A stretch of DNA of 64,000 nt. Source: an uncultured bacterium (GTDB lineage: Bacteria; Chlamydiota; Chlamydiia; Chlamydiales; FEN-1388). Below the pieces are notes generated by a model, which was not told where the DNA came from, searched no databases, and was given only the letters and a program-made list of their open reading frames with translations. The stretch covers positions 47,137 to 111,136 of the forward strand of contig CAZASK010000002.1 of assembly GCA_964487845.1 (NCBI GenBank), written 5' to 3'. Shown one piece after another: positions 45,313-45,476 of this stretch (position 1 is the stretch's first letter; every line of letters begins with the position of its first letter). The position numbers were made by a program, and so were the translations under genes.

Positions 45313-45476
45313 GACCTCTTGCGTAATTAAGGTTCTGTCGATTTTCGGGTTCTTTTGAGCCGCTTTTCGATTCGAATTACAGGGATTATATCCGTTGATA
45401 TTACCCCTGTAATTCGAATCGAAAATCGGCCAAAATAATCCCAAAAAGCGACGAACCCTTAATTACGCAAGAGGTC
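45313..45476. repeat. 164-bp nested palindromic intergenic element (copy B, a related family) inside the pseudopilin gene string
   Basis: Perfect 20-nt outer arms GACCTCTTGCGTAATTAAGG (45313-45332) / CCTTAATTACGCAAGAGGTC (45457-45476). Perfect 21-nt inner arms TTTTCGATTCGAATTACAGGG (45364-45384) / CCCTGTAATTCGAATCGAAAA (45405-45425). The segments between the arms are also roughly complementary. Confidence 0.85.

Follow-up and report, generated by a model that had tools for sequence, protein, structure and literature searches.

The type II secretion system (T2SS) operon found in a 64,000-nt stretch of DNA from an uncultured bacterium (contig CAZASK010000002.1; hereafter the window) carries a 166-bp palindrome between two of its pseudopilin genes. 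Very probably, this palindrome (45312-45477, with no strand assigned) is a miniature inverted-repeat transposable element (MITE) of IS5 type, a member of a repeat family designated A, that inserted at the pseudopilin junction. Its identity as a non-autonomous MITE and its arrival by insertion are almost certain. Judged by its sequence, it is a bacterial IS5-type MITE, being 166 bp long and non-coding, bounded by inverted repeats, flanked by a 3-bp duplication and present in dispersed copies. The usual definition of such elements fits it in all respects but one, namely that an empty site be seen directly in a close relative. In the proposed mechanism, a MITE with AGACYTCTT ends would have been mobilised in trans by an IS5-family transposase (HTH_Tnp_4 plus DDE_Tnp_4; NF033581). 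This enzyme would recognise AGACYTCTT... ends and duplicate a 3-bp A-W-T-like target, and the element would recently have inserted at the stop/start junction of the two genes, 1 nt wide, where its target was the ATA in ...TCGATATAGAATG.... The source assembly comprises 1.66 Mb in 55 contigs, with 42% G+C and 90% completeness, and the sequence matches obtained here agree that the organism is an uncultured chlamydia-like bacterium.

Architecture, copies and target-site duplication

The palindromic core of the element spans 45313-45476 and is built of two 80-nt arms (45313-45392 and 45397-45476) that are 84% complementary and separated by 4 nt. Its left terminal inverted repeat, GACCTCTTGCGTAATTAAGG (45313-45332), pairs perfectly over 20 nt with the right terminal inverted repeat, CCTTAATTACGCAAGAGGTC (45457-45476). 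Further inward, the left arm of a second stem (TTTTCGATTCGAATTACAGGG, 45364-45384) forms 21 perfect base pairs with 45405-45425. A first-pass annotation, made from the sequence alone, had described these outer and inner repeats and had placed the element 1 nt past the stop codon at 45312 and ahead of the next ATG at 45483; the sequence and the coordinates agree with it on both counts. It had also noted that the right end shares AAGAGGTC with another copy, labelled C, and AAGAGGTC proves to be the conserved terminal inverted repeat. As RNA the element folds with -99 kcal/mol, compared with -39 ± 3.9 kcal/mol for dinucleotide shuffles (z = -15.5; none of 200 shuffles folds as well), and the two strands of the 45312-45477 copy are nearly equal in stability (-98 and -104 kcal/mol). 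It has no coding capacity, the sole open reading frame (ORF) that touches it being a spurious 89-aa frame on the minus strand.

The element is not unique in its genome. Family A comprises eight copies on seven contigs, all of them intergenic; six, including the one at 45312, are 98-100% identical, while one is 90% identical and another has a 22-nt deletion. A palindrome scan combined with a BLAST census of the genome recovered about 35 full-length elements of roughly 165 bp in four families, accompanied by some 20 fragments and by mini forms of 39 and 75 bp. Besides family A these are family B (AGACTTCTTTCGAAAC..., about 13 copies), family C (AGAGGGAATTGCAAAAC..., about 13 copies) and family D (TATAGTCGATTAAATTT..., 2-3 copies). 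The dispersed repeat family foreseen in the first-pass annotation is thus real, and the two similar elements that it had placed at 8128 and 10945 exist and share the same build. They are, however, members of two sister families, B (8127-8288, 162 bp) and C (10945-11111, 167 bp). The same annotation had set this copy apart from the others for lying inside a gene string. Its position at a gene junction stands, but four other family-A copies also lie between co-directional genes, with looser spacing.

Alignment of the copies together with their flanks set the family boundaries at AGACC...GGTCT, 166 bp apart, with a 3-bp direct repeat outside. At the T2SS junction this repeat is ATA, found at 45309-45311 on the left and in matching form at 45478-45480 on the right. 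Identical 3-bp flanks border seven of the eight family-A copies and 16 of the 20 genuine copies of families A and B, compared with 0.21 upon random re-pairing of left and right flanks. The duplicated triplet is mainly AAT or ATT across copies, and ATA at 45312-45477. A TA duplication of the kind seen in IS630 or Correia-like elements was considered and set aside, as it fits five of the eight family-A copies versus seven for the 3-bp repeat. The copy at 45312-45477 begins with G rather than the consensus A, a variant also present in the copy at C2:22736. Removal of the element and of one duplicate reconstructs the empty site ...ACTAAAAAATCGATATAGAATGAGC..., in which a TAG stop, a single base and an ATG follow one another.

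Origin of the ends and history of the junction

The ends of family A recur among other members of the order, where they bound complete insertion sequences (ISs). In eight other genomes, ISs of 904-974 bp carry AGACYTCTTTCGAAAC ends; most are flanked by matching AAT, ATT or AGT, and a few differ at one base or meet a contig end. The transposase domain PF13359, searched for in 150 genomes of the order, is present in 21, and the ORFs of the ISs that were tested match PF13613, PF13359 and NF033581. One IS-bearing genome (G007) belongs to the same family as the organism of the window. A 917-bp IS in genome G071 runs from AGACCTCTTTCAAAAC to GTTTTGAAAGAGCTCT between two AAT triplets, and its ORFs match HTH_Tnp_4 (2.7e-17) and DDE_Tnp_4 (1.7e-11). 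Another, of 939 bp (L100, from genome G102), also has AAT on either side; its left end is AGACCTCTTGAGTAATTAAAT, and the reverse complement of its right end, AGACCTCTTGCGTAATTAAAC, shares about 19 of 21 positions with the family-A repeat. Within the set of ISs bearing AGACYTCTTTCGAAAC-type ends, AGACCTCTTGCGTAATTAAA is the end of L100. The MITE therefore shares its ends with an autonomous, transposase-encoding type of IS, read in other chlamydial genomes. Internally, the MITE and the ISs are unrelated. The elements with AGACYTCTT ends form a new family of IS5-type MITEs.

The transposase of these ISs is distributed over two frames, as seen in two of them whose ORFs match the NCBIfam IS5 family transposase model (NF033581). 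In the five ISs with ORFs read (L085, L094, L095, L096 and L100), the protein splits after ...PIERPKKK, at an A-rich run, and the next frame reads YSGKKKRHTLK. From the sequence, a programmed frameshift seems likelier than decay. Candidate parents from the genome of the window itself, retrieved with PF01609 and PF13586, were rejected: one is IS4-like (contig C54), one is IS5/IS903-like with unrelated ends (C45) and one is a remnant (C39). Within that assembly, no element with family-A-type ends codes for a protein, and solitary end fragments have no adjoining transposase ORF. The ISs of the order that carry DDE_Tnp_1_2 were likewise dismissed; they have AGAGAC- or AGAGCC-type ends and a TAA duplication, and none has AGACYTCTT.

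The exact 20-nt family-A end occurs in 32 genome contigs and 43 metagenome contigs. Titles of the genome contigs name Rhabdochlamydiaceae, Parachlamydiaceae, Parachlamydiales, Chlamydiales, Chlamydiia and Chlamydiae, and several give only 'bacterium'. The end was also met in metagenome-assembled genomes (MAGs) labelled Acidimicrobiaceae and Alphaproteobacteria (L143, CAWBQX010000001.1; L154, CAWKIU010000002.1), and two full-length family-A homologues were read in L143. These matches could reflect mis-binned or chimeric contigs, or transfer outside the Chlamydiae. Full-length homologues found in many chlamydial MAGs are 75-89% identical to the 45312-45477 copy, and the paired elements of public contigs mostly measure 160-179 bp.

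Conservation of the palindrome was examined in an alignment of 28 copies covering 65 pairs of the hairpin, in which 97.3% of cells are paired. Two-sided changes affect 25 of the 65 pairs, compared with 12.7 ± 1.6 in shuffles (none of 500 has as many) and 8-13 in controls with a slid partner, and compensatory cells number 141 versus 41 in shuffles. The compensatory variation is strongest in the 21-bp inner stem, which is swapped wholesale and yet pairs, for instance as GAATTACAGGG/CCCTGTAATTC in one form and CTTTTTTGGGGG/CCCCCAAAAAAG in another. Almost all of these changes are Watson-Crick, with few G-U intermediates. At co-directional sites, one family-A copy lies in sense and four in antisense orientation to transcription. 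The scarcity of G-U pairs, the about equal folding of the two strands and the varying orientation point to maintenance of a palindrome at the level of DNA rather than of a strand-specific RNA. Most likely, pairing is kept because mobilisation, and not the host, depends on a DNA hairpin or on its symmetry.

Comparison of the pseudopilin junction across relatives indicates that the spacer is derived. Among 14 family relatives, in which the downstream protein has 25-36% identity, the two genes overlap by 4-26 nt at 13 junctions and are separated by 35 nt at one; most of these relatives carry an AAGAGG-type site within the end of the upstream gene. For the three closest homologues from a large protein collection (56, 54 and 47% identity), the junction is in each case an ATGA overlap of 4 nt. 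Altogether, the element is absent from all 18 related junctions read, about 17 of which overlap. Because related junctions overlap and lack the element, the 170-nt spacer at this locus is derived, in keeping with the earlier suggestion of an insertion rather than an ancestral state. A GspF-based search for related loci in genome contigs found nothing. The 170-nt gap in an otherwise overlapping T2SS string thus represents a recent transposon scar, not a regulator evolved for secretion. The element is selfish DNA of an ordinary kind that sits in a neat position, and no regulator built for the purpose; 45312-45477 is best annotated as a repeat.

Consequences for the operon and competing explanations

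The insertion spared both genes. The upstream TAG stop (45310-45312) consists of the duplicated TA and the first base of the element, where the consensus base A would have yielded TAA, and the downstream ATG is untouched. The right end of the element furthermore provides a Shine-Dalgarno-like AAGAGG on the plus strand (45469-45474), 8 nt 5′ of the ATG at 45483. In the hairpin this AAGAGG pairs with 45315-45320, and in a fold of 45290-45530 its probability of being unpaired is 0.00 in the free transcript. The same probability increases to 0.70-0.96 once a terminating ribosome is modelled by keeping 6-15 nt after the TAG single-stranded. The downstream start codon lies in a small hairpin of its own (45483-45526, probability of being unpaired about 0.13) that is independent of the element.

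This arrangement suggests a simple working model for expression of the downstream genes. Since the spacing leaves no place for another promoter or terminator, the element would be co-transcribed with the operon, and the resulting hairpin of about 75 bp would bury the Shine-Dalgarno sequence. Translation of the downstream pseudopilin would then occur mainly when a ribosome terminating at the upstream TAG melts the base of the stem, and would in this way stay coupled to that of its neighbour. Such translational coupling through a masked Shine-Dalgarno sequence has, by this modelling, an even chance of being correct. At the level of translation, the modelled anatomy suggests the opposite of the uncoupling envisaged in the first-pass annotation, with the stop codon kept and a Shine-Dalgarno sequence supplied. 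The long duplex would also be a plausible substrate of RNase III, whose gene (rnc) is encoded in the genome; processing of the transcript is possible and could lower or split the downstream message. A measurable effect on processing or polarity is conceivable but rather unlikely.

Copies of the family in public contigs tend to lie close to start codons. Of 42 unique copies, 16 have a start codon (of an ORF of at least 80 codons) within 14 nt of one end or the other, versus 9.3% in a control drawn from intergenic AWT sites of the same loci (p ~5e-7), and 10 place ...GCAAGAGGTCT directly before AATG (or AGTG, TATG or ATTG) at an ORF start, versus 2.0% (p ~8e-9); all these figures are indicative, the loci having been picked by exact end match and the ORFs called crudely. 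In those 10 copies, AAGAGGTCT is the MITE end that precedes AATG, and the start codon is partly built from the duplication. Copies positioned exactly at start codons are thus about 11-fold enriched, with AAGAGG just upstream. A stop codon, the MITE and a start codon follow one another on one strand in five of 43 copies of the undeduplicated set, as they do at 45312-45477.

A hairpin of this kind might instead act chiefly on the operon RNA, either by attenuating or terminating transcription or as a determinant of processing or stability, lowering the last pseudopilin, leucine-rich repeat (LRR) and 283-aa genes or separating them from gspD-G. This alternative appears rather unlikely. It can invoke the great stability of the plus-strand fold, the presence of rnc, and the precedent of the Correia elements of Neisseria, whose transcribed copies form mRNA hairpins that are bound or cut by RNase III and alter the expression of neighbours (PMC2649163). 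Against this, no T-run follows the stem on the plus strand, where the sequence continues with TATAGAATGAGC; the element is for this reason not an intrinsic terminator, and a terminator scan of it returned only a weak 5-bp site at 45348-45361. The sole promoter match within the element is on the minus strand, the regional count of such matches equals the shuffled expectation, and no credible plus-strand promoter was seen. The attenuator or terminator proposed in the first-pass annotation accordingly finds no mark in the element, given the missing T-run and the inconsistent orientation of the copies relative to transcription. Watson-Crick compensation that serves both strands, with few G-U pairs, also speaks against a role in RNA, as do the intact downstream genes and the Shine-Dalgarno sequence that the element supplies.

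Another possibility, which deserves some credence although it is probably not the whole story, is that the element rides along as a passenger, neutral or mildly harmful, which has no notable effect on expression and survives only because it is recent and broke no codon. The 98-100% identity of the copies would then reflect a recent burst, the intergenic position of all eight is what would be expected if genic insertions were purged, and no parent IS is left in the assembly. It is, however, unlikely that the next gene would escape all effect when its only Shine-Dalgarno sequence is buried in a duplex of about 75 bp, and the start-codon enrichment with AAGAGG upstream suggests that survival depends on the ends. 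Were the element an ancestral cis-regulatory hairpin dedicated to the T2SS operon of chlamydiae, this would explain why it fills the entire spacer between two operon genes. This idea is refuted, and its remaining probability is negligible, by the seven other copies in the genome, the absence of the element from all related junctions read, the target-site duplications and the IS-type ends. Equally negligible is an origin as a repetitive extragenic palindromic (REP) sequence or REPIN moved by a RAYT (Y1) transposase, or as a Correia-type element with a TA duplication. Such elements are also palindromic, dispersed and intergenic, and TA stands beside GACC...GGTC in five of the eight copies. The genome has no match to the Y1 transposase domain (PF01797), the 3-bp duplication accounts for more copies, and the ends agree with those of IS5-family ISs. 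Nothing in Rfam reaches threshold for the element either: with Rfam 15, only two tRNAs of the window pass the gathering threshold, and the element itself draws only sub-threshold plant miRNA hairpin models.

Several observations weigh against the account of a recent IS5-type MITE insertion with consequences for translation. The parent-type transposase was not found in the assembly of the window with PF13359 or PF13613 (at 90% completeness and in 55 contigs), which leaves the near-identity of the copies as the argument for recent mobility in this genome. The collections searched hold no genome of the same species with an empty site and none of the same genus, and the exact left flank was not found in metagenome contigs. 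With the nearest relatives at 47-56% protein identity, the insertion is deduced from a conserved gene overlap and not seen directly. For the 45312-45477 copy taken alone, a duplication of 4 or 5 bp (ATAG or TATAG) fits equally well; the reconstructed empty site is the same under each length. Of the eight family-A copies in the genome, this alone has an end that lies no more than 14 nt from a start codon, and the enrichment in public copies could reflect survival bias rather than targeting. Lastly, the statements on transcription, RNase III and translational coupling are all models.

A broader proposition, although improbable, would make the AGACYTCTT MITEs of environmental Chlamydiae operon-compatible elements, each insertion creating a new point of coupling or regulation. 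If this were true, TAATG-type junctions would have their stop and start codons restored by the A-W-T target and its 3-bp duplication, the outward-facing AAGAGG ends would replace the displaced ribosome-binding site, and the maintained hairpin would tie downstream translation to upstream termination or to RNase III. No relevant paper on MITEs in Chlamydiae was found in the library searched. The family is spread through many uncultured Chlamydiae, and because its copies give rise to spurious ORFs and to errors in gene boundaries, it is a useful item for annotation. It also offers a small natural test case for the tolerance of operon insertions in compact intracellular genomes.

Related elements, neighbouring genes and sister families

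The element resembles other bacterial MITEs found within transcription units, of which the Correia elements of Neisseria (CREE/NEMIS) are the best studied. Correia elements duplicate TA, or sometimes CA, and have their own 26-bp repeat; they may carry a site for integration host factor (IHF) as well as promoters, and their transposase is not identified (PMC2649163). Family A resembles them in being gene-less and of similar size (about 100-160 bp for the type), in its terminal inverted repeats and many copies, and in its frequent location 5′ of genes or within transcription units. An mRNA hairpin and possible changes in the expression of neighbours are further points in common, on the family-A side predicted from sequence. 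The differences lie in the 3-bp A-W-T duplication of family A, in its AGACC-type ends shared with IS5-family ISs, and in the lack of any indication of a promoter role. Identity with a Correia element was rejected on the duplication of 3 bp and the ends AGACCTCTTGCG..., in place of TA and the 26-bp repeat. Identity with a REP or REPIN was rejected in view of the 3-bp duplication and the lack of PF01797 in the genome.

In Orientia tsutsugamushi, an IS5-family IS and its cognate MITE, ISOt1 and mISOt1, coexist in one genome (PMC2575882). As with family A, the MITE shares its terminal inverted repeats with an IS5-family IS and has multiplied in an obligate intracellular bacterium with a small genome; the likeness drawn here is one of build and setting. 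Unlike this pair, family A has its matching IS only in other chlamydial genomes.

Among eukaryotes, the Tourist MITEs and the PIF/Harbinger transposons likewise combine a transposase with a DDE_Tnp_4-type domain, a 3-bp AT-rich duplication and short palindromic, non-autonomous derivatives near genes. In these systems TWA is the usual duplication and a Myb-like protein is required in addition, whereas family A duplicates AWT and is bacterial, with a two-ORF transposase of IS5 type. The Rickettsia palindromic elements (RPEs), ERIC/IRU, RUP and bcr1 are, like family A, palindromic dispersed repeats of compact genomes. Part of this group is transcribed together with genes, and in part of it compensatory changes preserve the fold. 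RPEs insert in frame within genes, ERIC, RUP and bcr1 have other ends and duplications, and none has AGACYTCTT.

All genes of the T2SS string are on the plus strand. Its upstream part contains gspD, encoding the secretin (38481-40964), gspE (40964-42670) and gspF (42677-43864), which are followed by two pseudopilin genes with an N-terminal methylation motif (43946-44401 and 44376-44930). The pseudopilin-like gene upstream of the element occupies 44815-45312 as its longest ORF; the likely start is the methionine of the prepilin-like MRRKPFFLVEALIA, at about 44902, and orthologues with 37% identity are found at the equivalent position in relatives. The pseudopilin downstream of the element (45483-46157) has 224 aa, an N-terminal methylation motif (PF07963) and orthologues that are 47-56% identical. 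It is adjoined by the gene for a 605-aa LRR protein (46173-47990), 3′ of which lies a conserved 283-aa gene on the same strand (48035-48886). No counterpart of the LRR gene occurs in about 22 relatives whose T2SS strings were compared; because of this absence, the gene represents a lineage-specific insertion into the operon. In relatives, the orthologue of the 283-aa gene stands directly 3′ of the pseudopilin (38% identity to L119:4689-5546).

Individual copies of the repeat families show further variations of structure. The family-A copy at C9:54863-55028 differs from every other copy in having its central 26 nt reverse-complemented between co-linear arms, as expected from a flip by recombination between the perfect inner inverted repeats. 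The family-B copy in the window (8127-8288) has ATT on both sides and begins 17 nt past the tRNA gene at 8037-8109. The family-B mini forms at C8:3646-3720 (75 bp) and C14:27769-27807 (39 bp) retain little beyond the two terminal repeats, and each is still bounded by matching AAT or ATT. The family-D copies at C5:70812-70979 and C6:51691-51857 form a 168-bp palindrome with TATAGTCGATTAAATTTTCGATGG ends, which resemble the repeat of the Neisseria Correia element (TATAGTGGATTAAATTT...). At C10:23709, a D-type end adjoins a C-type fragment.
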